Shown here: positions 1 through 58,270 of the stretch, piece after piece | How the letters are laid out: each line of letters opens with the position of its first letter | Position numbering within the stretch: position 1 is the first letter of the stretch | Virus record (IMG/VR): IMGVR_UViG_2695420523_000009 | Location: 12,534-76,533 of that record | DNA: 64,000 nucleotides | From: a virus | Taxonomy: Duplodnaviria; Heunggongvirae; Uroviricota; Caudoviricetes | Reading direction: 5' to 3' (one strand) | The notes under the pieces: generated by a model | The model's database searches: none | What the model was told of the DNA's origin: nothing | What the model saw: only the letters and a program-made list of their open reading frames with translations | Translations under genes and position numbers: made by a program

Positions 1-498
1 GGGTGTAACGAATCTGAAATAGATGAATTAACGTTAATAGGCAAAGATAAAAGTGAACTTGAACAAAATTATAAAGCCCAATTCAAGAAGCTAACACAAA
101 ATGTTGAAGTGTTTATTCTTCAAGATAAAAATAGTCCGACTGAAAAAGAACCGCATACGAATGGCAACCTGATCGACGGAAAAGTCGAAATGTCATTAAC
201 CAGTAATGTTGGTAAGTATACATTCATCCAGATAAGTGAAATGCTGACAAAGGAGTACGGAAAACCCGTTGCTACAAAAGATCGTGTTTTTAACAGAGAA
301 GCAGTATCTGGCATGGACTGTATTGAAACTAAAACTTGTGGAGCTGGTAAATATTATGAAATCTTTCGAGGGAAGGATAGATTGATTATGGTGTCAAACG
401 GTGCCGGTCTTTTACACGAAAAGGAAGGTGTAACACTACTCACCATCACCGATAAACAATTTAAATTTTCTCGTTTAGAAGAAGATAAAATAAAATAA
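1..498 (+). CDS. hypothetical protein, 5'-truncated by window edge
   Basis: Frame 1 is open from base 1 (no stop before the ATG at 109) to the stop at 496-498; AT-rich like the adjacent cargo gene; no recognisable motif. Confidence 0.4.
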   Translation, partial: GCNESEIDELTLIGKDKSELEQNYKAQFKKLTQNVEVFILQDKNSPTEKEPHTNGNLIDGKVEMSLTSNVGKYTFIQISEMLTKEYGKPVATKDRVFNREAVSGMDCIETKTCGAGKYYEIFRGKDRLIMVSNGAGLLHEKEGVTLLTITDKQFKFSRLEEDKIK

Positions 499-502
499 TG
501 AC

Positions 503-530
503 AGGGGCGTATACGCCCCTATCTAAAATT
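503..530. terminator. hairpin between convergent genes (possible bidirectional terminator)
   Basis: GGGGCGTATACGCCCC palindrome flanked by A/T runs, between the convergent ORFs ending at 498 and 750. Confidence 0.45.
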
Positions 531-749
531 TGACATTAAACATATATTGCATCTGGTATCAGCAATTTTTGTGCGCTATGTAAGTCCTTACCTGCAATCA
601 GTCTCATAAATATCGGATTTTACGTAGCGTACCATCGTTACAGCAAGCATCAAATTATTCACTGACATTTATGCGCTGAAAACAGCGTTACTTACCGTAA
701 AATAACAATTTTCAGCGCAAAATTTAAAGAGGCTTCGAATCTGCACAAC

Positions 750-2078
750 CTATTGTGCGTACTCGCCCAATTTTAATGTTTCACGCTTATATTCATCAAC
801 TATCTCACATGATTTAATATAGATATGGCACAATAGGTTATCACTATCATCATTATCGTTTATTGCCATAAGTGCCAACTTTTTCTCATATTCATCGATC
901 GCATCACTCAACTGATCACCTGTAATTACATCTGACTCACTCGAGAAATATAACTGCCCAAGATTTACCGCATTTTTTCCAGTTTTTCTTTGCTCTATGT
1001 AATTTTTAATCATATCCTTCACATCCTTTTCACTACTCAGTATTTCACTTTCGAAATGGACATGCTCTGAAATCGACGCGACTCTGCAACCGATCAAACG
1101 ATGAATATAGTCATCAATAGACGTAACACTATCATTAGCTTTTTTTAGTGCTTCATCAAAAATGCTCTTTACCTCATTTGGCAAATTTTTAAAATAATCA
1201 TCAATTAAACCAGATAATGGTGTTTGGTAGTTCATTAATACCGATGAAGCAACTTGCGGACGACGAGCCACCCAGATTTCTTTGACTTCAACTTGAGAAT
1301 AATATTCCTTAATCACGTTCCAAAAGTATTTTAACATCTTGGTTTTAAATATTTTATCAAATCTATCCTTTATAAATAGCTCTACTTCAGGCATGCTTGA
1401 ATAAGCATCATCAAAGAATATTTCATCTTTGAAAAAATCATATTTATTTAATAAAGCATACAGTTTTTTTGAATCCAGCGGTTCACGAGAATCGATGTCC
1501 AATCCAAAAACTGCAATAACCAACTTCATTTGCGGTGGTATTTTTCCACTCAATTGAATAATATATTCCATTTTTTCATCAAAACAATTTCCATCTATGT
1601 AAAATCGGTTATCTACATAGACTAATATATTGGTAATATGTTTTATGTACTGAATAACCTCATGCTTTCTTACCAATGGATAAAAAAACGAATGCATTTC
1701 ATTTTTATTAAATTGTTTTTTTGTCTGTTCAATGATTGGTATGACATTATTGTACAACTCATCATGCTGATTTAATAAAGTGTCAAACCATTCTTTGAAA
1801 GAATTTTTTCTCATCTCAATCAATGAATCGGTAGTTATCCTAACGGCCTCCAGTGCTGCCTTTGCACTTTTTCTTGCTTCATAGGCGTTCCACGCTGTTG
1901 CACAAAAAGCCGCTGTCGTTATAAAACTACTCAATACAGCAATTTGGTCTGTAACCTTCCAATCTTGAAATGGCTCAAGTAGTAAACCTAAAAACAAAAT
2001 TATTATGGAAAACATTAGAATTGCAACAGAAATAAAAACAGGCATGTATGCTCTCGTACTTACCATTGTTAGTTGCAT
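750..2078 (-). CDS. membrane-anchored hypothetical protein (2 predicted N-terminal TM helices); candidate abortive-infection/defence cargo
   Basis: 442 aa ORF, clearly more AT-rich than the phage backbone; hydrophobic N-terminus (PVFISVAILMFSIIILFLGLLL) then a large soluble Lys/Asp/Glu-rich domain; no catalytic motif recognised. Confidence 0.6.
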   Translation of the reverse strand: MQLTMVSTRAYMPVFISVAILMFSIIILFLGLLLEPFQDWKVTDQIAVLSSFITTAAFCATAWNAYEARKSAKAALEAVRITTDSLIEMRKNSFKEWFDTLLNQHDELYNNVIPIIEQTKKQFNKNEMHSFFYPLVRKHEVIQYIKHITNILVYVDNRFYIDGNCFDEKMEYIIQLSGKIPPQMKLVIAVFGLDIDSREPLDSKKLYALLNKYDFFKDEIFFDDAYSSMPEVELFIKDRFDKIFKTKMLKYFWNVIKEYYSQVEVKEIWVARRPQVASSVLMNYQTPLSGLIDDYFKNLPNEVKSIFDEALKKANDSVTSIDDYIHRLIGCRVASISEHVHFESEILSSEKDVKDMIKNYIEQRKTGKNAVNLGQLYFSSESDVITGDQLSDAIDEYEKKLALMAINDNDDSDNLLCHIYIKSCEIVDEYKRETLKLGEYAQ

Positions 2079-2140
2079 TAAATATTAACTAAATTAAGTT
2101 GTGATTAACAGGCAAGTTTACGATGTATTGCAGACATTAA

Positions 2141-2161
2141 ATAGGTTTTTACTTACCTATC
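2141..2161. promoter_or_regulatory. intergenic palindrome (TAGGTA/TACCTA family) upstream of glutaredoxin gene
   Basis: ATAGGTTTTTACTTACCTATC, arms ATAGGT/ACCTAT; member of a recurrent motif family (see findings). Confidence 0.4.
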
Positions 2162-2217
2162 TTTTATAGTAATATTTATTTTCTGGTTAAGTAACACATA
2201 ATTATTATGAGGTAAAC

Positions 2218-2463
2218 ATGACTATCGTTATCTACGGACGAGATAACTGCTCATATTGCAAACGTGCGGTCGAGCTGGCGAAACAACTAAAGGGACACGG
2301 CTATGGTGATTATGAGTACATCGACATCACCACTGCCGGTATCGATAAGGAAAAACTTAGCGAAATTGTTGGCAAACCGGTAGAGACTATCCCCCAGGTA
2401 CTGATCGATGGCCAACCGATTGGCGGATACACAGAACTGGCTGCATACGTCACCACTCTCTAA
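2218..2463 (+). CDS. glutaredoxin (Grx1/NrdH-like redoxin)
   Basis: 81 aa, CSYC active-site motif, GKPVETIPQVLIDGQPIGGYTEL closely resembles E. coli GrxA; RBS GAGG upstream; hairpin terminator follows. Confidence 0.85.
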   Translation: MTIVIYGRDNCSYCKRAVELAKQLKGHGYGDYEYIDITTAGIDKEKLSEIVGKPVETIPQVLIDGQPIGGYTELAAYVTTL

Positions 2464-2468
2464 TTTTA

Positions 2469-2493
2469 ACGGCTCACAGGAGCCGTTTTTGTT
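2469..2493 (+). terminator. rho-independent terminator
   Basis: ACGGCTCACAGGAGCCGT hairpin followed by TTTTGTT. Confidence 0.7.
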
Positions 2494-2542
2494 CCCACCA
2501 AACTCACGCTTGGTTCCCTTAAAATTCAAAAAACAACGGCTA

Positions 2543-2575
2543 AATGATTCCATACCTACTATGTATGGAATCATT
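2543..2575. repeat. perfect 13-7-13 inverted repeat (AATGATTCCATAC-ctactat-GTATGGAATCATT); candidate recombinase core site
   Basis: Exact 13-bp inverted arms with 7-bp spacer, about 100 bp upstream of the tyrosine recombinase gene; lox/dif-like architecture. Confidence 0.5.
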
Positions 2576-2673
2576 ACTGAAAATGAGTTACTTTTACTCT
2601 TGATCCTATAAGAATCTATGCCTAATATACTGTTTACTTATACAGTGAATCGGCGTAACTCGGTGATTGTCAT

Positions 2674-3777
2674 ATGAAAAATAGCTTTGACAGAGCACGC
2701 GCTGCGGAGAACACCTCAAAAGAGGCGATTGAGTATCTCGAAAGAGCATCTCAAATGCAGGCCGTTATGATCTCGCAGGTTAGCAATGATATGAGATTCT
2801 CGGACGCATTCATGTTATTTACTCGCTTATCTCTGCTGATAACCAGACGTCGGCCAGAGATCGCTGTTCATTGTATTTTGATACATGTTTTGCCGCACAT
2901 TGCCGATGTAAAAGTAAGTGACATTAATAGGTTCATGGTGAACCAACTGGTCAACCCACTAATACTGGATGGCAAAATTGTTATGGGCCGCCGCGTTTTC
3001 TCTCTGATGAAGCAGTTCCTTAGCTGGTGCGCCTTCCAGGGGATGATAGACGTGTCACCGTTAAACGATATGTCACTAAACAAAGTTGCCGGTGGCGCAA
3101 AGCCCACACCTCGCGAGCGGAAGCTGACCGACGCAGAGGTATGGGTGTTCTGGAATATATGGGACTACTTCAATGTGTGCGCTGGTACAAAATGGGCGGC
3201 CAGGCTGTGTCTTGTATCCGCAAGACGACCTGACGAAGTACTGCGGGCTAAAAAAAGTGAGTTCAATCTTAAGCGTGGGGTTTGGAATCAAGGCAAGAGG
3301 AACAAATCTGCCCGTGAGCATTCGCTGCCTTTAAGCACATTAATGCGCACATGTATTGAAGAGTTGTTCGAATACGGTAAAGGCAGCCAGTGGCTCGTGC
3401 CTTCGAATAAAAAAATCGGGAAAGATCTTCCTATGTCTAAAGTGGCAATAGCCCAGGCATTACGTCGTATCCTGGAACGACCAGAACTGATGGAGCTTGA
3501 GCCATTTACACCCCGAGACTTGCGCCGTACTGCGCGTAGTTACTTCCCAGCATTAGGCATAAGCCAGGAGGTATCACGCAAAATCATGAACCACAGTCTT
3601 GAGGGGATAGATCGAGTCTACGACCGGCACGATTATATGGACGAGATGCGAGACGCCTTAGAAAGTTTCTCGACGTACATCGCATCAATCGTAGAGCAAC
3701 CGGATTTAGACGAAATTGACCACAAATTCAAGGGAGATCGTCTATCAACAGAGCTTATTCGTGTAAATTTTTCATAG
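2674..3777 (+). CDS. tyrosine recombinase (phage-integrase family, core-binding + catalytic domains, no arm-binding domain)
   Basis: Catalytic signature ARRPDE ... RDLRRTARS ... NHSLEGIDRVYDRHDY (R-H-R-Y); 367 aa, lacking the N-terminal arm-type DNA-binding domain of P4-like integrases. Confidence 0.85.
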   Translation: MKNSFDRARAAENTSKEAIEYLERASQMQAVMISQVSNDMRFSDAFMLFTRLSLLITRRRPEIAVHCILIHVLPHIADVKVSDINRFMVNQLVNPLILDGKIVMGRRVFSLMKQFLSWCAFQGMIDVSPLNDMSLNKVAGGAKPTPRERKLTDAEVWVFWNIWDYFNVCAGTKWAARLCLVSARRPDEVLRAKKSEFNLKRGVWNQGKRNKSAREHSLPLSTLMRTCIEELFEYGKGSQWLVPSNKKIGKDLPMSKVAIAQALRRILERPELMELEPFTPRDLRRTARSYFPALGISQEVSRKIMNHSLEGIDRVYDRHDYMDEMRDALESFSTYIASIVEQPDLDEIDHKFKGDRLSTELIRVNFS

Positions 3778-4158
3778 AGACTTTATGGCCTCAACAACCT
3801 TTTGTGATGCGCCTTTCTCTTTACCGAATCGCTCGTTATATGCAGCAAGAACCTGTTTTTCGTCCTCGTTAAGAGGAGCGGTGCCTTCTTTGTATAAAAA
3901 TGCTGCGAGTTCAGGTTGGCGTTCTTCCAGCACCATCATCATAAGACGACTTGGCTCAATACCCAGCGCCAGCGCCAACGGACGAACCTTATCGATAGGC
4001 AAAGGAATTTTGCCACTTTTAATTAAAGAAAGGTTGTTGGCATTTTTATAACCAATAAGTCTGGCTATTTGGGCCTGACTCATAGGTGAGGATTCAATCA
4101 GCCCTGCGATAAAAGCAGCATAGCGACTTTCTATAAATTCAATCTTGTTGTCAGACAT
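3772..4158 (-). CDS. XRE-family helix-turn-helix transcriptional regulator
   Basis: SQAQIARLIGYKNANNLSLIKSGK HTH_XRE-like motif; 128 aa; convergent with the recombinase gene. Confidence 0.8.
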   Translation of the reverse strand: MSDNKIEFIESRYAAFIAGLIESSPMSQAQIARLIGYKNANNLSLIKSGKIPLPIDKVRPLALALGIEPSRLMMMVLEERQPELAAFLYKEGTAPLNEDEKQVLAAYNERFGKEKGASQKVVEAIKSL

Positions 4159-4189
4159 TGTTACAACCTTTGCGCGTTCAATTCTCTCT

Positions 4190-4203
4190 GGTAAGTGCTT
4201 ACC
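4190..4203. promoter_or_regulatory. palindrome GGTAAGtgCTTACC in promoter region of the XRE regulator (candidate auto-operator)
   Basis: 6-bp inverted arms with 2-bp spacer, about 35 bp upstream of the regulator start codon; GGTAAG/CTTACC half-sites recur nearby (about 4310 and 4375). Confidence 0.4.
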
Positions 4204-4408
4204 GATATTACATCAAAGGTTAGGGTTGTAAAGCTATTATCATTTTTTCGATAGGCACTTAAAAGACCGGTTAAAGGCCATTGCACGGAGAAAAATTAGC
4301 CCAAAACAGGTAAGAAAATTAACTTGCATATGATATGAATGTATTCAGTATTGATATAAATTTTAGTAGTATTCCTTACCATAGTATAAGTTAGAATGGA
4401 TTGATTGA

Positions 4409-4621
4409 ATGAACACCACTATTTCCAGCCTAATCGCTCTTGAGATCGGACACGTACAGAAATTAGCTGATGAGTGTGTAGCTGACATCCTCACCGATCT
4501 ACCGAATGAGCAGATTCAGGTTGGTGTGAATGACACAACTGGCTTTATATTCGAACTTAACAACAAACGCTTCACGCTTCTCAATATCGGCTCCGGGTCT
4601 TTAGCCGTCAGAATCTGTTAA
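4409..4621 (+). CDS. hypothetical small protein
   Basis: 70 aa ORF divergent from the XRE regulator; weak RBS; no motif. Confidence 0.3.
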   Translation: MNTTISSLIALEIGHVQKLADECVADILTDLPNEQIQVGVNDTTGFIFELNNKRFTLLNIGSGSLAVRIC

Positions 4622-4687
4622 CCCCTCTTCTCCCTGCGCGAATGGCTTAGTTCCCTGTTCGCGCAGTGCTACATTAAACACACTAGT

Positions 4688-4702
4688 AAATAATTTGTTT
4701 TC
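4688..4702. promoter_or_regulatory. AACAA-N-TTGTT-type motif (half-site variant) upstream of CobT-like gene
   Basis: AAATAATTTGTTTTC, 18 bp upstream of the ATG at 4720. Confidence 0.35.
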
Positions 4703-4719
4703 ATAACAAAGGATTAGCC

Positions 4720-6828
4720 ATGTCTAAAAAACGTTCCATCAAAGAGGTTCAGGACTTCCGTGACAGTGTAAAACGAGTAGTCGCTCTCCTTTCAGGTAAA
4801 AACATCCCTGTTGCAGAACGAGGGGACGACGCTTATGTACGCTATAACGATGATGGAGAGCCAATTCTCGTAAACATCCCATCAATCCCGGATAACGCAA
4901 CACCGGCATTGATGAATGCTGTGCGCGGATTTCTCGATCATGAGGTTGCTCACATTTTGTTTACCGATATTCGTGTGTCCAACAAAATGAGAGAAAAAGG
5001 ACGCGTTCCTTCCTGGTCGCTATGGAATGCCTTAGAAGACGTGTTCATCGAGCGAAAAATGGGTCAGGTCTTTAACGGAACAAGACGTAATCTGATGGCA
5101 ACTCAGCGCCTTATAATCGAAAAAGTCTTTAAACCAAAGGCTTCAGAGGCTATTGCTTATTGTGGCAAAGATCAGCGCGCGCTTTTTCTAAACTTCTTTC
5201 TCTGTCCGGTTGTAAGAGCCTGGGATGGCCAAGCACCGTTCGTAGATTTCATGGATGAACATTGGCCTGTCATTGAGAAACCAATTTCATTATTAAAAGA
5301 ACATGGTATCGATGTGGCCGTGCGTAACATGTCTTGCACCGAGGATTGTGTAAAGGTGGCTGCGACCATAGCTAAGATCCTCAAAGACACTGAAAGTGAA
5401 AGCAAAGGTAAGGAGTCAGCTCCGGGAAAAACTTCCGATCCTTCAGACGCTGACCAGACGGATGCCTCTGGAGAAAACAATGAAGACAACGAAGATCATG
5501 AGACTCCCTCAGTGTTAGATAATTACAAATCTATCAAATCAGAATCACATAGTAAGTACAAACATGATAATAACGACAGTGATGATTCAGATAATTCTGA
5601 ATCATCAGAAACAATATTCGATGATACAGAAAATGATAAAGAGGTATCAGATTCTGATGCTTCTGATAACGCGGCGTCAGAATCATTAACCGCTGACCAC
5701 GAAAAAAGAAAAACGACAGAAGACGGCTCTTCAGATATCCCAACTCCGTCAAAAATGAGTCTGGAAGAGGCTTTAGAGGAGTTGGATAGCATGGAAGATG
5801 AAGTCGGAGGCATGACAGAAGATGCGCTATCCGAAACGATTAAAAGCGAGTTAACAGAAAGCTCGAAAAGCGAATACAGGCCATACAATCGCTCATACGA
5901 CTTCATCGGCTCGATTGATCAGGCAGAAGCCCATATCAAACGGCTTATTAAAACATTCTCCGATATTGATTTGGGAGGATATCCAATCAGCCGCTATCGC
6001 ATCGTTCCTGAAGGCAACCAGCTCTTCGACAAATATATTGAAAAGCATCTTTCGTCAGGTGTTTCGTCGACGCTGGCAAAAGACCTGGAGCGAGCAATAG
6101 CAAGCAGAAACAGAGTTCAGTTTATACCGGGCCAGCGTCGGGGGCGCATTCATGGTTCTAGTATCTACAGATTAGCAATGAATGATGCTCGCGTGTTTCG
6201 TAAAAAAGAAGAATCTAAAGCCGTTAACGCCTGTGTTCAACAAGTGATTGATTTATCAGGTTCAATGAGTGGTATAACGATTAAACTGGCTCTTGCAAGT
6301 GCATATACCATCGCCGATGCCCTTGATCGAATAAATGTTCCCAACATTATCACCGGCTTCACTACATTTGGTAGTCATATGGCGGCAGGAGAACTTAAGG
6401 CTGTCAAGTATGAGTTCTCTCGCTTTGAATCTTTAATGCTACCTATCATCAAAAATTGGAATGAAAAGGTAAATTCTCGCGAAGTTCGCTCACGTATGGG
6501 GTGTGTAGGCTACACATTCCCACTTCTTAATAACGTGGATGGTGAAAGCATAGCCAGCCTTGCATCGTTATTTTCCGGTCGCATGGAGGACAGGAAGATC
6601 ATGCTTGTTCTGAGTGATGGCGCGCCGTGGGCTGTTGGGAGAGGTTTTGACGCTCATTTGCGTTCAGTTGCGAAGCAAATTGAAACGCAGACTGATATTG
6701 ATTTGATGGCAATTGGCATCATGACTGACGCACCGGAGAGATTTTACTCAAATCATGCCCTGGTAACGAGCGTTGATAGTCTTGGTTCATCTGTAGTTAC
6801 TGAACTATCTCGTATCATTTTAAAGTGA
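4720..6828 (+). CDS. cobT: CobT-like von Willebrand factor A domain protein
   Basis: 702 aa; long acidic Asp/Glu/Ser linker in the middle; C-terminal vWA with MIDAS motif (VIDLSGSMSG); paired with a downstream CobS-like ATPase. Confidence 0.75.
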   Translation: MSKKRSIKEVQDFRDSVKRVVALLSGKNIPVAERGDDAYVRYNDDGEPILVNIPSIPDNATPALMNAVRGFLDHEVAHILFTDIRVSNKMREKGRVPSWSLWNALEDVFIERKMGQVFNGTRRNLMATQRLIIEKVFKPKASEAIAYCGKDQRALFLNFFLCPVVRAWDGQAPFVDFMDEHWPVIEKPISLLKEHGIDVAVRNMSCTEDCVKVAATIAKILKDTESESKGKESAPGKTSDPSDADQTDASGENNEDNEDHETPSVLDNYKSIKSESHSKYKHDNNDSDDSDNSESSETIFDDTENDKEVSDSDASDNAASESLTADHEKRKTTEDGSSDIPTPSKMSLEEALEELDSMEDEVGGMTEDALSETIKSELTESSKSEYRPYNRSYDFIGSIDQAEAHIKRLIKTFSDIDLGGYPISRYRIVPEGNQLFDKYIEKHLSSGVSSTLAKDLERAIASRNRVQFIPGQRRGRIHGSSIYRLAMNDARVFRKKEESKAVNACVQQVIDLSGSMSGITIKLALASAYTIADALDRINVPNIITGFTTFGSHMAAGELKAVKYEFSRFESLMLPIIKNWNEKVNSREVRSRMGCVGYTFPLLNNVDGESIASLASLFSGRMEDRKIMLVLSDGAPWAVGRGFDAHLRSVAKQIETQTDIDLMAIGIMTDAPERFYSNHALVTSVDSLGSSVVTELSRIILK

Positions 6829-50939: not shown

Positions 50940-51700
50940 TTTATACAATCAAGAAAACAACTGAATAACAGATCAACGAAACATCAACGCTTTCACCCGA
51001 TTTGGTCTAAAAAATTGACGTTTTCACACATCACTTCTTATACCCGTAATTCTACGCAGCAGACAGCGCCACAGCGTCCAATTTTCACCACAGACGACCC
51101 AACACACTACCAACAAAAACACACGCTCAAAATCGCTCCCGTTGCGTTACACAACCATATAAACAACTTATTTTCAGGCATAACAAAACAACTAAATAAC
51201 ACACATGCCATTCCCAAAAACAACCAACCTCTTTATGGCAGGCTACCGAAAAGACCCACCTCTTCTCCCCAGGCTACCGGACAGCCAACCTAACTTTCAC
51301 AGGCAATCCGAAAACATTCATACGCGCAATACCCACGACACGCCATTACCCAAACAGCGAAGAAACACCAGAATCACTGAAACCCCAACGAAGCCTGTAA
51401 CCACAAGGATTCTCTCAATCCCAAAAGACACGAAACATAACAATCACGGGAAACGCCATTACCCAATACACGAATAACTACAAAAGCCCTTCACGCACTC
51501 CAGACAAACAACTCAAACACAACAACGAAAGGAATCGCCCACCTGCCATTACTCCATACATGGAGAAGAACAATCACCAAAACGACGAGAACACCCCATA
51601 GAAGAACCACCGCAAAACGAACGAAACCACATACACCGACAGAGAAACAACACACCCAATTCACCAACAGAAATAGTCGCCGTATAGAACATTCTGGAAG
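50940..51700 (+). other. A+C-rich, G/T-poor non-coding tract (strand-asymmetric)
   Basis: Top strand dominated by A and C with few G (e.g. CAACACACTACCAACAAAAACACACGC); the ORFs called here are composition artefacts with no RBS. Confidence 0.6.
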
Positions 51701-51875
51701 GAGTGAGCATTAACGCCTATAGAGAGGTTGAGACAGAAAAACACAACATGTATAGCGAAGAAGCCAGGTATGTATAAGTGGGGAGGGAAGGAGGGGTGTC
51801 GCCTCCTTTTTCGTATTTATTCAACTCCTGATTTTATCCCCCCGTAACACCCCTACGGTCAGTCTTCGGTCCATA

Positions 51876-52009
51876 CAGGGAAAAGGTTGCATCCCGCTAC
51901 AGAAACGGCTGGGTTGCCTTCGGGGAACGGCTGGGGATTTTCAGGGAAACGGTCGAGTTGCCTGTGTGGATTTCGGGAAAAGGCTCGATGCCGGTTCAGG
52001 AACGGCGGC
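51876..52009. repeat. direct-repeat array, GGGAAACGG family, about 22-bp periodicity (array 1)
   Basis: Six copies (CAGGGAAAAGG, CAGAAACGGCTGG, CGGGGAACGGCTGG, CAGGGAAACGG, TCGGGAAAAGG, CAGGAACGG) at 21-22 bp spacing (one 31 bp); TGTGGAT DnaA-box-like core at about 51965. Confidence 0.6.
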
Positions 52010-52343
52010 GTACCGGTATAGCGAGAGGGAGAGTTGCGGCTACCCACCTGTAATGTGCGGGAAGAAGAGAGGCGCTCACGTGCAGGCGAACTTACTTACC
52101 GCTGGATTCCCTCTGAATGCCCAACTACAGCGTAATTGTGCCAGACAGCCAGCGGGTCACAATCGATTTCAGTAGGTTTTCGGGGAGAGGATTATTCTGC
52201 CTACCAGCCACTTTCGGCCACTAAATCAGAATAATGTAAAAAGTGTACTCGGTACTGAACCTGAAAACTCACTGCCAAAACCACATTCACCGGAATAAAA
52301 TCCTTTTCCGCCTTTGTCTTATTGCGATAATAACACCAACAAG

Positions 52344-54905: not shown

Positions 54906-55388
54906 ATGAATTTTATCGCTACTGTAAACGCACCCGCACATGGCAATATCGCTGTAACGTTCTCTGACATTGAAAAACGAGTACTTGGTGCATGGCGCGA
55001 CAATGAGACGGTAGAACTGTCAGCACAAGAAAAATGCATTATTGCACGCGACATCATTGGCAATCGTCGTTACTCGCGGGTATTTGAGAAAGCGTATGTG
55101 GTAAATTCTGGATTCGGAACGTTCGTCTTTCCGGTGCGCTCCGGGCGATTCTGCCAGTCCAAGCTGATTGAGTTCGCTACGCAGATTTCTGTCTGGATTA
55201 AAACTCAATCGTCGTTCAAATTTTCCGACGATGAAGCAGTATCGCAGGGGATGCGGATCGCCAACAATGCGATTAAATGCAAAAACATTACGTATACCGC
55301 TGGCGTTGATACATGGAAACTGTTTTGCGCTAACTTTATGCTGAATGTATACGCAAGCAACCGCATCCACATCCTTGATGGCGTGTAA
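54906..55388 (+). CDS. hypothetical protein
   Basis: 160 aa, RBS AAGGAA. Confidence 0.55.
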   Translation: MNFIATVNAPAHGNIAVTFSDIEKRVLGAWRDNETVELSAQEKCIIARDIIGNRRYSRVFEKAYVVNSGFGTFVFPVRSGRFCQSKLIEFATQISVWIKTQSSFKFSDDEAVSQGMRIANNAIKCKNITYTAGVDTWKLFCANFMLNVYASNRIHILDGV

Positions 55389-55392
55389 CTGA

Positions 55393-55420
55393 GAAGAGGG
55401 CCAGAAACGGCCCTTTCTCT
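55393..55420 (+). terminator. rho-independent terminator
   Basis: GAGGGCC-agaaac-GGCCCTT followed by TCTCT. Confidence 0.6.
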
Positions 55421-55438
55421 ATAGCCACCAGCTGCCGC

Positions 55439-55550
55439 AGGGAAATTTTCAGAAGCGGCGAGGAACGTATTCATGAGCCGACGGGGAACGGCCAGGATTT
55501 TTTCGGGAAACGGCTGCATTTGCCTTTGTGTAGAAAAAACATCGGGAAGC
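55439..55550. repeat. direct-repeat array, GGGAAACGG family, about 22-bp periodicity (array 2)
   Basis: CAGGGAAAT, GAGGAACG, GGGGAACGGCC, CGGGAAACGGCTG, CGGGAAGCTGG; same family as array 1 at 51876..52009. Confidence 0.55.
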
Positions 55551-55963
55551 TGGTGGAATCCAACCAGCGGTTGTCGGACAGGTGAGCGGGGAAAATTATG
55601 ATGACTTTCGTCACCTGAGACATCCAGATTTCTTTCGTAGCATAATCACATACGTGATTAAGTGGTGTGATTATGTGAAAAATCACGCGCACATAATACG
55701 CGAGCGGATACGGAACAAAACAAAATGCCGATCCGCGCCGACAAATAAACGCGGATCATAAAGCAAGACTAAAAGCCAATGATTAACTATGCGCTATAAC
55801 GCGTTTTAAGCGCGTTAATGTGTTAAGTAATGGGTATGTACTGGCAAGGATATAAAAGCGCGTCTATGGCGTTATTTTGGCGCTTATTTTTATGTTGTTG
55901 GAGTGAGTTAAAGACAATAAAAAACGCGCCATCAATGGCGCGTTATTGTGGAAGTATTGGAAA

Positions 55964-56000
55964 CGAAAAAAGCGCCCATAGTGGGCGCTCGATTTTATTT
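55964..56000. terminator. bidirectional terminator; GCGC-rich hairpin family member
   Basis: AAAAAAGCGCCCATAGTGGGCGCTCGATTTTATTT; serves the minus-strand operon ending at 55995. Confidence 0.7.
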
Positions 56001-56225
56001 ATGTAAACTGATTTCAAATCCCATTTCTACAAACGCTTTTAACATTAAAAATAGATCAGCGTCGTTCACGTCTGCTTTTTTTCGCTCCTGGTCGCTCAAT
56101 AAGTCAATTTTGCGCGTCGTTTCATCTATAAGCTCGACTGCGCGCCCAGCGTAACCAGCGATCCCAGCGATGCGATTAACATAATATTCATTATGGACGT
56201 TAACGCCAGCGATAAGAACAAACAT
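55995..56225 (-). CDS. hypothetical protein
   Basis: 76 aa, last gene of a 3-gene minus-strand operon in an AT-rich islet. Confidence 0.45.
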   Translation of the reverse strand: MFVLIAGVNVHNEYYVNRIAGIAGYAGRAVELIDETTRKIDLLSDQERKKADVNDADLFLMLKAFVEMGFEISLHK

Positions 56226-56246
56226 GATTAAGCTCCTTAAAAAAAA

Positions 56247-56495
56247 TTAAATAGAATTTTGAAGTTTTCCGATTAATGCGCTTAAGCGTAAGTATTCACG
56301 TTTGCGCTTGCAATCTCGCTTGCTGTTAAGCAAATCAGAAAACGTAAAATTTAATTGGTCGCGTTGCGCGATCAAATCGTCGATTAATTCCAGTTTATAA
56401 GCGCGATAATTTGCGCGATATTCTGCGCGGATCTTGTCATAGCTGACCATCTTTAAAGCTCCTTTAAAGCGCCCATTGTGGGCGCTTGATTCCAT
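56247..56495 (-). CDS. hypothetical protein (start possibly internal, at about 56450)
   Basis: 82 aa ORF; a GCGC hairpin at 56467..56487 lies in its 5' end. Confidence 0.4.
   Translation of the reverse strand: MESSAHNGRFKGALKMVSYDKIRAEYRANYRAYKLELIDDLIAQRDQLNFTFSDLLNSKRDCKRKREYLRLSALIGKLQNSI
56467..56487. repeat. GCGC-rich palindromic hairpin AAGCGCCCATTGTGGGCGCTT
   Basis: Near-identical to the 55971..55989 palindrome; related palindromes at 55924..55945 and 55797..55815. Confidence 0.6.
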
Positions 56496-56498
56496 TAA

Positions 56499-57149
56499 TT
56501 ACGCTTTAAAAGCATCAGCTAAATAATTGTAGAAATCATTCTTGATAAAGCGATATTGCTGTGTACCAGCTTTGGCGCTCCCAGCTCCTTTGACTTTTTC
56601 AACAAGTCCGAGACGTTCGCAAAGATTGATCAACTGGTTGGCTTGAGTATAGCCAGCGTCCAATTTAATTTCACACGCTTTTTTAGCTTCATTCATTAAA
56701 TCGAAAACAGCGCCATTGGTGAACGTGTCGATCTCGTCGTTAATCATATCGATTAAAGCGAATACACGAGATCCAGACATATCAGCGATGGAATAAATGC
56801 ATTTACCAGATTTAATTGATTTAACCAGATAAACCAGTTTTTCCAGAGAATAACTATTAGTCATTGCATCACGAAAAAATACTTCTGGCGCTTGTTTGCT
56901 TGCTTTAATCGCATAGTAGAAAACAGAGCACAATTTTTCGTCTTCTACAGCGTTTACAACGTTGTTGATGAAGTAAGCTAGTTTAGTGGTCGCAGCTTGC
57001 ATATTTGCTTTGTCTGCTTTAGTGTGCGTACCATTTTTATAATGTTCGTTGTATGTTTGAGTTGCCAGATCTGCTTTTTCGCGCAGTTCATCGGATACAA
57101 TGGAAGCAGCTTCAACGATGGATTTTTTAGAAATGATAATGTTAGCCAT
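56499..57149 (-). CDS. hypothetical protein (C-terminal winged-helix-like segment)
   Basis: 216 aa; C-terminal QLINLCERLGLVEKVKG resembles a wHTH recognition region; preceded by a 280-bp AT-rich promoter region. Confidence 0.55.
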   Translation of the reverse strand: MANIIISKKSIVEAASIVSDELREKADLATQTYNEHYKNGTHTKADKANMQAATTKLAYFINNVVNAVEDEKLCSVFYYAIKASKQAPEVFFRDAMTNSYSLEKLVYLVKSIKSGKCIYSIADMSGSRVFALIDMINDEIDTFTNGAVFDLMNEAKKACEIKLDAGYTQANQLINLCERLGLVEKVKGAGSAKAGTQQYRFIKNDFYNYLADAFKA

Positions 57150-57433
57150 GATGATTTTTCCTTATGTAAATTTAAAATTTATTGTCGTTAGCGTCTTCGC
57201 TTTCGACGAGTTCAATCATCGATATACGAAAAAAGATTGCAAGTGTTTTTTTTAAAATTTTTTGCAGGGATGAAAGTCCTAGAAATAAAAGCGAGATCGT
57301 CGAAGGTGTTCCCTAAATAAATAATCGATTCCGGCTTTAGACCTTATATATATTTAGGTTATTTGATTTATAGATATAAAGAAGTGATGTGAAAAATAAT
57401 AACCGGACTTAGCCGGTTATTAACCTTATAGAT

Positions 57434-57742
57434 TTATTGAACAGACTCTACAGCCTTACGATTGGTGTCAAATAGCGCATCAACGAACTGTGCCGATGAC
57501 TCGCTAGATTCGCAATCCAACATTGCCCGTTCTTCATTTGCCACTTTCTTACACAGTTCCACATTCTCGCCTATCGCTTTTCCTGCTTTTACGGCTGCCG
57601 AAAATTGATACATGCAAACTGATACATTCTGAGACGTTGAGCACACGTCATTCATCAGCGACTGAATGACAGGCTTATAGTCCATTGCATTTGCTGCAAC
57701 TGAGCAAAGTAAAAATAATGGTGGTAACAATATCGATTTCAT
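57434..57742 (-). CDS. hypothetical secreted Cys-containing protein
   Basis: Signal-peptide-like MKSILLPPLFLLCSVAANA; 102 aa; 3 nt after the upstream gene. Confidence 0.5.
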   Translation of the reverse strand: MKSILLPPLFLLCSVAANAMDYKPVIQSLMNDVCSTSQNVSVCMYQFSAAVKAGKAIGENVELCKKVANEERAMLDCESSESSAQFVDALFDTNRKAVESVQ

Positions 57743-57745
57743 AAC

Positions 57746-58270
57746 TCAAAAAGGCAAAATTCGTTCAACCCAATCGAACAAAACAACTATTTTTCTACCG
57801 TTCTCGACACGTAGTGTAACCTGACAAGCATCTGCACCTGCTGACACCCCCTCAATTTCACGGCCATCCGCCATGTACACCCTTATAGATTTGTTTGCTT
57901 TGTAGGCTTGGTTGCAAATTGCAAAAAAATCGCGGCGTGATGGCCGATTATCGACATAATCAGGGTGAACTGTTAGTCGACCTTTGAAATCGTGAGCGAT
58001 ACTGTCAACCACACCTGATTCAATTGTACTAATGCGTTCAAGTGGGAGCCTTATACGATTTTCTTTGTCAAAAGGGGCTGGGCAAAGGTCAACTTTGTTA
58101 CGAGATGGCATGAGGCCATAAACGTACATGCAAAACGCCTGGCCATCTTCGAGAGTGACCCTTACAGGAATTTGTTCTCTGCGCCAGAACATCAGTAGTT
58201 TTTCAACGTTAGTGTAATCTCGCGGCCAGAGTTCAGCTTGGATACCGTAGGTAATATCTTTGGTTGTCAT
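57746..58270 (-). CDS. hypothetical protein
   Basis: 175 aa from the internal ATG at 58270; the ORF-track start 58348 would overlap the upstream lipoprotein gene by 74 nt. Confidence 0.45.
   Translation of the reverse strand: MTTKDITYGIQAELWPRDYTNVEKLLMFWRREQIPVRVTLEDGQAFCMYVYGLMPSRNKVDLCPAPFDKENRIRLPLERISTIESGVVDSIAHDFKGRLTVHPDYVDNRPSRRDFFAICNQAYKANKSIRVYMADGREIEGVSAGADACQVTLRVENGRKIVVLFDWVERILPF

Follow-up and report, generated by a model that had tools for sequence, protein, structure and literature searches.

The first 2.2 kb of the window, by which we mean the whole 64,000-nucleotide stretch of DNA analyzed here, hold the 3′ part of a lipoprotein gene and, convergent with it, a gene encoding a 431-residue membrane protein (Table 1). 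The glutaredoxin gene grxA, which follows, is the first conserved backbone gene of the right flank. Beyond it are an integrase gene (2674..3777) and an HTH repressor gene (3772..4158), confirming the recombinase and regulator that a preliminary description of this DNA had placed nearby. The window begins with codon 20 of the lipoprotein gene, within the lipobox of MKKCHLNIFASLIIALTLTGC, with 57 nt (19 codons) preceding it; the 5′-truncated ORF recorded there earlier is real and represents the 3′ part of this gene.

Table 1. Features of the islet at the left end of the window (window coordinates)
Feature	Position	Strand	Remarks
Lipoprotein gene, 3′ 166 codons of 184 aa	1..498	+	full gene L002:9944-10498
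G+C-rich hairpin GACAGGGGCGTA/TACGCCCCTATC	500..523		10 pairs, then T-rich tail on minus strand (terminator scan)
Noncoding spacer of this cassette type only	524..708		similarity to P0005-type cassette starts at 709
Imperfect inverted repeat	arms 669-682 / 709-722		left arm within spacer 524..708
Second, degenerate copy (93%) of the last 29 nt of the conserved tRNA-cluster flank/terminator	709..737		direct repeat D3
Putative AbiC/AbiP-like (putAbiC-superfamily) inner-membrane protein gene, 431 aa	750..2045	-	mechanical ORF to 2078 (442 aa)
Hypervariable C-terminal half, aa 221-431	753..1385	-	column entropy 3.2-3.5 bits
Putative putAbiC core, aa 128-187	1485..1664	-	only stretch alignable with lactococcal AbiC
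Predicted TM helix 2, aa 35-52	1890..1943	-	small-residue rich (TTAAFCATAW); Kyte-Doolittle 17-mer mean 1.79
Predicted TM helix 1, aa 2-23	1977..2042	-	Kyte-Doolittle 17-mer mean 3.12; model helix 2-22
AT-rich divergent spacer, part of cassette	2046..2205		27% GC
grxA glutaredoxin (context, not cargo)	2218..2463	+	Pfam Glutaredoxin 6.5e-11; conserved in all relatives

The region is compositionally distinct, as had been claimed. The GC fraction of positions 1-2200 is 0.334 (z = −5.4), the lowest of all 597 overlapping 2.2-kb segments; the other 596 have a mean of 0.459, an SD of 0.023 and a minimum of 0.386. Measured over positions 1-2205, GC content is 33%, compared to 46% for the backbone. 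Specifically, the membrane-protein gene has a GC fraction of 0.326 (GC3 0.296), the lipoprotein part 0.351 and the spacer at 2046-2217 0.267, compared to 0.48 for grxA and 0.47 for the integrase gene. AT-richness is common to the whole family of AbiC-like genes described below (GC 0.30-0.32 on every mobile element examined) and is by itself no proof of recent import.

Alignment with relatives places the islet between −171 and 2205 of the window (L002 9829-12205). Homology to sister phage-plasmids, whose flanks are 95-98% identical, ends 171 nt before the window and at 2205/2206, the latter 12 nt ahead of the grxA start codon, and homology with Cyrano, CMS-2020a and other plasmids restarts at 2206-2218. 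The cassette reaches from the tRNA-cluster terminator to the ribosome-binding site of grxA, and the neighboring integrase and repressor therefore have no evident role in its mobility. Within the islet, the hairpin, which the repeat search also returned as inverted repeat I10, looks like a terminator for both strands. The convergent terminators described previously are only partly upheld: this single hairpin can serve both strands, but no T-run accompanies the inverted repeat at 669-722. The two copies of direct repeat D3 lie at L002 9788-9816 and 10709-10737. The first, ending in ...AAAGGGGCTTCGGCCCCTTTTTT, is the last conserved sequence ahead of the variable slot in relatives, and the second marks where the lipoprotein module joins the AbiC-like one. 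An Rfam scan of the islet spacers gave nothing above gathering score in 524..708 and nothing credible elsewhere. No ORF of at least 27 residues was found in that spacer and no notable small ORFs in 499-749, and no canonical σ70 promoter was matched upstream of the membrane-protein gene (minus strand, 2046..2205).

Positions 2218-6000 share 95-99% DNA identity with the Escherichia phages Cyrano, CMS-2020a and PhiR41_1, and the same identity with ~110-kb nonmobilizable plasmids. To judge from its sequence, the element is an SSU5/pHCM2-type E. coli phage-plasmid, and the window opens inside a plasticity slot bounded by the tRNA-cluster (Asn-Tyr-Thr-Ser) terminator on one side and grxA on the other. 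Cassettes in this slot are swapped between near-identical backbones: one type has a 1.44-kb cassette with a 56%-identical allele of the membrane protein, in another relative the slot holds a 34%-identical allele, and in Cyrano it consists of 376 bp with a Gp49-family gene. Alleles 30-56% identical occupy the same slot in other phage-plasmids, and the genera whose phage-plasmids have a family member there are Escherichia, Klebsiella, Enterobacter, Salmonella and Citrobacter. In 337 E. coli genomes, the slot has at least six alternative contents or lengths (~899, 1575, 1950, 2060, 2247 and 2900 bp), the type seen in the window being present in only five. The interval thus behaves as a hotspot in that alternative or highly diverged cassettes lie between conserved flanks in near-identical elements. 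Its other occupants encode PhoH, Gp49-family proteins, the lipoprotein and hypothetical proteins, none of them an established or validated defense gene. A homolog of the membrane protein is encoded on only 139 PLSDB plasmids, compared to 999 with the CobT-like protein that we used as a marker of the SSU5 backbone (786 at ≥60% identity). Therefore, conservation of the gene as a core component of related phages, an outcome that would have spoken against the cargo reading, was not seen. The AbiC-like gene is also absent from phages Cyrano, CMS-2020a and PhiR41_1 and from the whole INPHARED set.

The lipoprotein contains a signal peptide with a basic n-region and hydrophobic core, and a lipobox LTG/C (MKKCHLNIFASLIIALTLTG/C), read from the translation with the pattern [LVI][ASTVI][GAS]C. 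It matches phrog_15156, which has no assigned function, and had no match in Pfam, the PDB or the phage collection. A 77%-identical copy is present in Citrobacter and E. coli I3 phage-plasmids, where it adjoins PhoH/Gp49 and no AbiC-like gene accompanies it; the lipoprotein is a module independent of the AbiC-like gene. Like the superinfection-exclusion lipoproteins Llp of T5 and Cor of phi80/N15, it is small, is encoded by an accessory gene of a temperate element and has a classical lipobox. However, it has no sequence relationship to them: the Cor PHROG, phrog_1119, was matched at E 0.041 over residues 1-50, that is, over the signal peptide only.

The convergent gene had been described as encoding 442 residues. 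That ORF exists (750..2078, minus strand), but the start is M12, which gives a protein of 431 residues. This assignment is based on three observations: all homologs begin at the residue equivalent to M12 (MPxL...), the sole Shine-Dalgarno–like motif (GAGAG) stands upstream of M12, and RefSeq annotates 431 residues. Two N-terminal TM helices followed by a large charged soluble domain had also been proposed, and the hydropathy means bear this out. TM helix 2 continues into the best-conserved juxtamembrane helix (a continuous helix, 31-107, in the model). The loop between the TM helices has a net charge of −2 and the 20 residues after TM2 a net charge of +2, a pattern repeated in 50 of 63 family members; by the positive-inside rule, the soluble domain is predicted to be on the cytoplasmic face. 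This soluble part is a 372-residue helical domain, ~30% charged, and its net charge of −14 is unlike that of a typical nucleic-acid binder. No catalytic motif is visible in the protein, in agreement with the earlier reading, and no nucleic-acid–binding motif. The AlphaFold model is all-alpha (pLDDT 90.7), and a structure search with it against the PDB and BFVD gave no relative. Across the 63 members, column entropy is 1.5-2.5 bits for residues 41-220, compared to 3.2-3.5 bits for residues 221-431, a segment that is a candidate specificity or sensor region.

Searches with the protein placed it in a large family. The membrane protein matches phrog_18168 (4.7e-204), and the family profile, compared with 1.84 billion representatives, retrieved 85 clusters, the full-length members of which are all 360-500 residues long. 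Of the 63 full-length members, 49 match PF16872 (putAbiC) at E ≤ 0.01, the best at 1.4e-11. Two members, P0026 with 32.7 bits and P0008 with 22.0 bits (over the stretch equivalent to residues 128-187), reach the PF16872 gathering threshold of 22 bits, and the family profile retrieves these proteins at 6e-45 and 6.6e-174, respectively. The window protein, whether taken as 750-2078 or 750-2045, gave no match to PF16872 even at E ≤ 0.1 and so did not reach that threshold. Nor did it match the PADLOC AbiC and AbiP models or NCBIfam at permissive E-values. With the window protein and its 15 nearest relatives left out, an HMM built from 47 distant members scored 145.7 bits on the window protein over nearly its full length and matched no other ORF of the window. 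In tblastn, the protein matched a Pantoea gene with the RefSeq name “putative phage abortive infection protein” (E 2e-9), a name that RefSeq gives to relatives of the protein. Full-length homology to proteins that pass the threshold thus indicates, by transitivity, that the window protein belongs to the putAbiC superfamily. A second, word-indexed homolog search with the 63-member alignment gave nothing further. Subthreshold hits of the direct domain searches (DUF1796, 12.9 bits; MG319/MPN454, 17.5 bits; tape-measure PHROGs) were set aside as chance matches of coiled-coil and helical sequence.

AbiC has two N-terminal TM helices and AbiP one, and both act after phage DNA entry, as the “AbiC/P group” (FEMS Microbiol Rev 2026, PMC13064643). 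PADLOC's AbiC model matches 8 and its AbiP model 5 of the 63 relatives; of the comparisons suggested earlier, that with PADLOC was empty for the protein itself and positive for some relatives, and the structure search with the protein was empty. In hhalign, the 63-member family and 23 lactococcal AbiC homologs aligned moderately over 60 columns (69.8% probability, E 4.1e-5), pairing the putative putAbiC core, residues 128-187, with AbiC 190-249. The same comparison with the close family alone was not significant, and an HMM of lactococcal AbiC reached only 16.8 bits, on a single relative. In the window protein, Asn stands in place of the His of the AbiC “FHRILK” motif. The protein has the N-terminal TM anchor of the AbiC/AbiP group (residues 2-23 and 35-52), and its two TM helices and all-helical, predicted cytoplasmic domain fit the architecture of AbiC (Prf). 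However, it is ~90 residues longer than AbiC (431 compared to 338-344) and ~180 longer than the AbiP model, has an extra hypervariable C-terminal half, is enterobacterial and not from Bacillota, and stays under every curated HMM threshold, with only the core alignable (~70%). The comparison with AbiC is weak and points to a probable distant relationship to lactococcal AbiC/AbiP. In a published test, a lactococcal AbiC-like protein sharing 38% identity with AbiC conferred no resistance (PMC11381338). AbiJ/SadR has a domain named “Abi_C” (PMC13590631), but this is a HEPN domain that resembles AbiC in name alone.

Several relatives sit beside or near known defense genes. One is in the P2 gpA-gpQ hotspot (described in PMC9122126), adjoining bSEFIR (2.1e-112), which is a separate single-gene system. 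A Lelliottia member adjoins PARIS (AriA 6.6e-40, AriB 6.6e-23) together with ParE and an integrase, an IncFII plasmid member has PD-T4-5 (8.6e-23) 4 kb away, and IncF plasmid members are IS-flanked and near VapBC/CcdAB. Two further relatives stand alone in the chromosome, surrounded by metabolic genes and with no defense association. A scan of GTDB genomes with the narrow family alignment gave a single locus. Colocalization with defense genes was thus found in a small sample of seven contexts, two of them lacking it and with no statistical control. We also considered whether the Enterobacter P2-prophage cassette of TIR/SEFIR plus TM protein is the validated “AC1” (Rousset et al.) and found no link: P0013 has no homolog in the phage collection, and matches in E. 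coli genomes are confined to the SEFIR gene of that cassette or its P2 flanks and do not include the AbiC-like gene.

The preliminary description had taken the islet for horizontally acquired defense cargo (abortive-infection or exclusion proteins). The replaceable cassette, the putAbiC family and AbiC-like architecture, and the defense-adjacent relatives together support that guess. A structural or housekeeping membrane protein was looked for among homologs, and none was found. We consider it reasonably probable that the slot holds two unrelated convergent cargo modules, of which the main one is a 431-residue single-gene anti-phage system of the AbiC/AbiP kind. We found no published phenotype for an enterobacterial family member in the literature.

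Among other explanations, the protein might mediate superinfection exclusion, blocking entry at the inner membrane on DNA injection as do P22 SieA or T4 Imm. Anchoring in the inner membrane through two TM helices would suit such a role, exclusion genes are common on temperate elements, and the adjoining lipoprotein could also act at the envelope. However, nearly all of the protein is predicted to lie in the cytoplasm, with a periplasmic loop of ~11 residues, its large variable cytoplasmic half suggests intracellular recognition, and its remote homology is to proteins acting after DNA entry (PMC13064643), which makes exclusion unlikely. That the protein serves the life cycle of the phage-plasmid itself, for example by timing lysis, by attaching replication or partition to the membrane, or through a conversion function that has nothing to do with phages, appears a little less likely still. 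The gene does lie in the early/replication region, between the ligase/tRNA genes and grxA-int-repressor-CobT/CobS-dnaE, family members fill this slot in phage-plasmids of five genera, and there is no recognizable effector domain. Yet the gene is far rarer than the CobT-like marker (~139 compared to 999 plasmid records) and missing from the three phages and INPHARED. In addition, the family occurs on IncF plasmids, P2-like prophages and chromosomes that share no SSU5 life-cycle genes, and its alleles differ by 44-70% while the backbones differ by 2-5%.

Selfish or inert cargo, whether a toxin-like addiction module, an anti-defense gene or a decaying hitchhiker, would explain the AT-richness shared with many horizontally moving genes, the lack of a known phenotype and the frequent toxin–antitoxin neighbors (YafO, HicAB, VapBC, CcdAB and ParE). 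We regard it as very improbable given the preservation of a full-length ORF and architecture from 100% down to ~15% identity over 85 clusters, the confident structural model, and the fact that no antitoxin-like partner is conserved alongside. Hardly credible is a single two-gene system, for example, an envelope sensor with an inner-membrane effector, even though both genes are adjacent in one AT-rich islet and both encode envelope proteins. The genes are convergent and separated by a hairpin and a 226-nt spacer, the second copy of the 29-nt flank end marks a junction where the two meet, and each occurs without the other: the lipoprotein in Citrobacter and E. coli I3, and the AbiC-like gene in all other contexts examined.

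On the reading of the membrane protein as a single-gene AbiC/AbiP-kind system, we infer an anti-phage phenotype and a division into sensor and effector by analogy. The hairpin of two N-terminal TM helices would anchor the all-helical domain at the cytoplasmic face of the inner membrane. The conserved membrane-proximal half, comprising TM2, the long stalk helix and the putAbiC core, would be the effector, and the hypervariable C-terminal half may recognize some component of a competitor phage during infection. Upon activation, the protein would halt development of the competitor, as for AbiC, which reduces capsid-protein production, and AbiP, which binds nucleic acid, is triggered by a tail protein and requires its TM anchor. 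The result would be protection of the lysogen and hence of the resident phage-plasmid.

With rather less confidence, we propose as a possibility that the tRNA-terminator/grxA interval is a previously undescribed antiviral hotspot in which alleles of a Gram-negative AbiC/P lineage, each with a conserved two-TM membrane effector and a hypervariable cytoplasmic sensor, are exchanged and diversified, such that swapping changes the phages targeted. AbiC is not among the systems named in a DefenseFinder survey of SSU5 phage-plasmids. The slot resembles the P2 gpA-gpQ and P4-like satellite hotspots (Rousset et al. 2022, PMC9122126), which likewise are fixed positions in temperate elements with alternative AT-rich cassettes between conserved genes. 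It differs from them in its setting, an SSU5-type phage-plasmid with the slot between a tRNA-cluster terminator and grxA, and in that its occupants, apart from the AbiC-like alleles, are not validated defense systems.

Few abortive-infection genes are as old as AbiC (1992) and AbiP, yet how they work is a long-standing question, and predicted structures have offered no hint of function (PMC13064643). Our data indicate that a divergent enterobacterial branch of the putAbiC superfamily exists as single-gene cargo, carried by SSU5/pHCM2-type phage-plasmids, which are clinically widespread, in Escherichia, Klebsiella, Enterobacter and Salmonella, by IncF plasmids and by P2-like prophages. If inactive, the gene would be merely one more AT-rich accessory gene without assigned function. 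If active, it would be an unrecognized defense gene on SSU5-type elements, and the cargo hotspot would be useful for mining further systems. The AbiC/P problem would then move into E. coli genetics, providing a tractable system for a 30-year-old question.

The preliminary description had set apart the first 2.2 kb of the window as AT-rich, and the composition bears this out: GC content at positions 1–2200 is 0.334, vs. a mean of 0.459 ± 0.023 (minimum 0.386) in the 596 other overlapping 2.2-kb windows (z = −5.4). The convergent 442-aa ORF described in this islet is present (750..2078, minus strand), but its length required correction. All 10 database homologs start at the equivalent of M12 (MPxL...), the only Shine-Dalgarno-like sequence upstream, GAGAG, belongs to M12, and the RefSeq annotation of the membrane protein is 431 aa; thus, we assigned the gene the shorter coordinates in the table. 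The 5′-truncated ORF is likewise genuine and represents the end of a lipoprotein gene, whose N terminus missing from the window (MKKCHLNIFASLIIALTLTG, then C) carries a classical lipoprotein signal and lipobox. Of the convergent terminators proposed, one hairpin looks usable by both strands, while the other element, an imperfect inverted repeat, lacks a T-run.

Features of the islet, types of the tRNA-Ser–grxA slot and genomic settings of family members
Feature	Position, length or setting	Strand	Remarks
Membrane-protein gene	750..2045	-	start M12, 431 aa
Lipoprotein gene, 3′ 166 codons of 184-aa gene	1..498	+	rest upstream of window
G+C-rich hairpin	500-523		terminator-like for both strands
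Slot type	about 899 bp		Gp49-family gene
Slot type	about 1575 bp		
Slot type	about 1950 bp		56% allele
Slot type	about 2060 bp		
Slot type	about 2247 bp		PhoH-containing
Slot type of the window	2900 bp		only 5 of 337 genomes
Family member	IncF plasmids		between IS elements, near VapBC/CcdAB
Family member	IncFII plasmid		PD-T4-5 4 kb off
Family member	Enterobacter P2-like prophages		gpA-gpQ hotspot, adjoining bSEFIR (2.1e-112)
Family member	Lelliottia		0.5 kb from PARIS AriA/AriB pair; ParE and integrase nearby
Family member	Erwinia, Pectobacterium chromosomes		solitary genes

Alone, the window protein matched no model in Pfam, PADLOC or NCBIfam, its sole match being phrog_18168, to which no function is assigned. 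A word-indexed search recovered no more than ten clusters (29–56% identical), each of them from E. coli; a profile of these ten, run against 1.84 billion representatives, yielded 85 clusters with full-length members of 360–500 aa. When 63 full-length members were scanned individually against Pfam and PADLOC models, 49 matched PF16872 ("putAbiC, putative phage abortive infection protein") at E ≤ 0.01 (best, 1.4e-11). In PADLOC, the AbiC model matched eight members and the AbiP model five. Two relatives of the window protein, P0026 and P0008 (the latter 30% identical to it), scored 32.7 and 22.0 bits with PF16872, for which the cut-off is 22, and RefSeq labels some relatives "putative phage abortive infection protein". 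In the reciprocal test, an HMM built from only the 47 most distant members gave the window protein 145.7 bits across almost its full length, with no match to any other ORF of the window. Therefore, membership of the protein in this enterobacterial putAbiC-positive family is secure.

The tie to the experimentally studied lactococcal proteins is much thinner. The reference set consisted of a bona fide AbiC-family gene carried by p275A, a plasmid of L. lactis (PADLOC AbiC, 4.3e-133), plus 22 homologs. Profile–profile comparison of the 63-member family with this set aligned only 60 columns (69.8% probability, E = 4e-5), pairing window aa 128–187 with AbiC 190–249, and the close family alone gave no significant similarity to it. 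The TM anchor is essential to AbiP, which binds RNA and ssDNA and whose toxicity is triggered by a major tail protein; AbiC lowers capsid-protein production (PMC13064643).

Hydropathy analysis located N-terminal hydrophobic segments at aa 2–23 and 35–52, in agreement with the two TM helices originally proposed. The TM1–TM2 loop is short and acidic and the post-TM2 stretch basic, a pattern found in 50 of the 63 members, and thus by the positive-inside rule the bulk of the protein is predicted to be cytoplasmic. AlphaFold with a deep alignment produced a confident all-alpha model (pLDDT 90.7, pTM 0.79), in which TM2 runs on into a 77-residue helix. Residues 41–220, comprising TM2, the stalk and the putAbiC core, are conserved (column entropy 1.5–2.5 bits), whereas residues 221–431 are near random (3.2–3.5 bits). 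Only Tyr133 and Phe205 are invariant family-wide, with His94 nearly so; as first noted, no catalytic motif is apparent.

The window backbone is that of an SSU5/pHCM2-type phage-plasmid, an element type known from the literature. Window 2218–6000 shares 95–99% identity with three Escherichia phages of about 108 kb (Cyrano, CMS-2020a and PhiR41_1), and a handful of ∼110-kb nonmobilizable E. coli plasmids match window 1–2250 at 100% identity. The gene order in annotated relatives is helicase, primase, ligase, tRNA-Asn/Tyr/Thr/Ser, a variable segment, grxA, integrase, HTH repressor, CobT-like, AAA/CobS-like and dnaE. L002, which extends the window by 10 kb upstream, was compared by BLASTN with three relatives. 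Identity of 95–98% in the flanks ends at L002 9828 (window −172) and resumes at L002 12206 (window 2206); the 2,377 bp between them are replaced in the relatives. On the left, conservation runs through the intrinsic terminator downstream of the tRNA cluster (AAAGGGGCTTCGGCCCCTTTTTT) and stops there; the right border lies 12 nt upstream of the grxA start codon.

A 29-nt direct repeat, TTTTCAGCGCAAAATTYAAAGRGGCTTCG, is present at L002 9788–9816 (112–84 nt before the flank border), where it ends the left flank as part of that terminator. Its degenerate (93%) second copy, with the hairpin destroyed, is at window 709–737, directly 3′ of the membrane-protein gene, and in the sister cassette with the 56% allele (identity to the window protein) the gene directly abuts the terminator. 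Therefore, the islet is a two-part mosaic, in which a lipoprotein module of 880 bp was inserted between the terminator and the 1.5-kb module with the membrane-protein gene. The repeat pair looks like either the scar left when the lipoprotein module inserted or a site at which cassettes repeatedly recombine and are exchanged.

The slot between tRNA-Ser and grxA is a site of plasticity, with at least six discrete lengths in the 337 complete E. coli genomes that match the flanks. Three alleles of the membrane-protein gene (100%, 56% and 34% identical) share it, while the backbones differ by only 2–5%. In window 2046–2217, the conserved backbone resumes so close to grxA that the grxA promoter is expected inside whichever cassette fills the slot, and grxA expression should shift upon cargo exchange; in Cyrano-type elements, a Gp49-family gene lies upstream of grxA on the same strand and overlaps it. 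The grxA–integrase interval (window 2464–2673) is a second variable slot, "empty" here at 210 bp and holding the grxA terminator (2468–2487). It contains a YafO-family toxin and a 202-aa protein in relatives L015–L020 and a 185-aa hypothetical protein in Cyrano. Elsewhere, window 55300–58000, the second most AT-rich stretch (GC 0.386–0.40; minus-strand ORFs of 102–216 aa), may be another cargo region. Window 51040–51700 and 51870–52010 belong to about 1.8 kb without an ORF ≥100 aa. There, a ∼650-nt stretch is nearly all A + C on the plus strand (GC skew −0.235, AT skew +0.32) with several GCCATTAC[CT]C-like motifs, followed by about five TTCRGGGAAAMGG-like repeats at ∼30-nt spacing. No TRF array or Rfam match was found; the region may be an iteron/origin region or a noncoding RNA gene.

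tBLASTN found homologs in 139 of 72,556 PLSDB plasmids (Escherichia 72, Klebsiella 37, Enterobacter 18, Salmonella 6 and others), mostly 105–115 kb and nonmobilizable, while the CobT-like backbone marker occurs in 999 plasmids (786 at ≥60% identity). No homolog was found in a sequenced phage. Thus, the gene is accessory and present in only a minority of the elements. On mobile elements and in Pectobacterium its GC content is 30–32% whatever the flanks (44–54%), so AT-richness is a family trait, with the Erwinia copy (47%) the exception. In the gpA-gpQ hotspot (PMC9122126) of an Enterobacter P2-like prophage, L026 8050–11535 encodes bSEFIR (478 aa), the AbiC-like protein (428 aa) and a 62-aa ORF. 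In E. coli (H191), SEFIR occurs without the AbiC-like gene, and thus the pair looks like two single-gene systems stacked together. In IncF loci L009–L013, a 115-aa DUF6404 gene (PF19942, 3.7e-37) always lies ∼550 bp upstream of P0008 on the same strand (e.g., L009 7098–7445); it may be a partner or merely share an IS-bounded fragment.

Taken together, putAbiC family membership and the exchangeable slot support the defense-cargo interpretation at the level computation allows, and we consider it rather probable that the protein acts against phages as a single-gene system of the AbiC/AbiP kind, anchored in the membrane and carried as exchangeable cargo. A mechanism can be proposed from published AbiP/AbiC work and the conservation pattern: the conserved membrane module would be the effector and the variable cytoplasmic half would sense a component of a competitor phage. 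Weighing against this reading are the failure of the window protein alone in every curated HMM, AbiC similarity limited to 60 residues, an acidic soluble domain and a lactococcal AbiC-like protein that was inactive on testing (PMC11381338). The other slot occupants, not known as defense genes, also count against it, and we found no published phenotype for enterobacterial members.

A function in the life cycle of the element itself is less likely for a gene restricted to a minority of the elements, with family members also on IncF plasmids, in P2-like prophages and in chromosomes. We judge inert or selfish cargo less likely as well, since the full-length ORF and its architecture persist over the 85 clusters. 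An entry-blocking exclusion protein would share the membrane anchor and is also less likely; the bulk of the protein is predicted to face the cytoplasm. Adjacency in the islet suggests a two-gene system with the lipoprotein, again less likely, as the two genes are mutually independent: in phage-plasmids of Citrobacter and E. coli I3, which lack the membrane-protein gene, the lipoprotein gene (77% nt identity) has PhoH and a Gp49-family gene as neighbors, and the membrane-protein gene occurs without the lipoprotein gene in every other context examined. The 431-aa protein is a divergent member of the known putAbiC/AbiC-AbiP superfamily, and the cargo slot that holds it belongs to an element of known type; the finding would carry greater weight if the slot were shown to be a genuine antiviral hotspot and allele swapping to retarget specificity.
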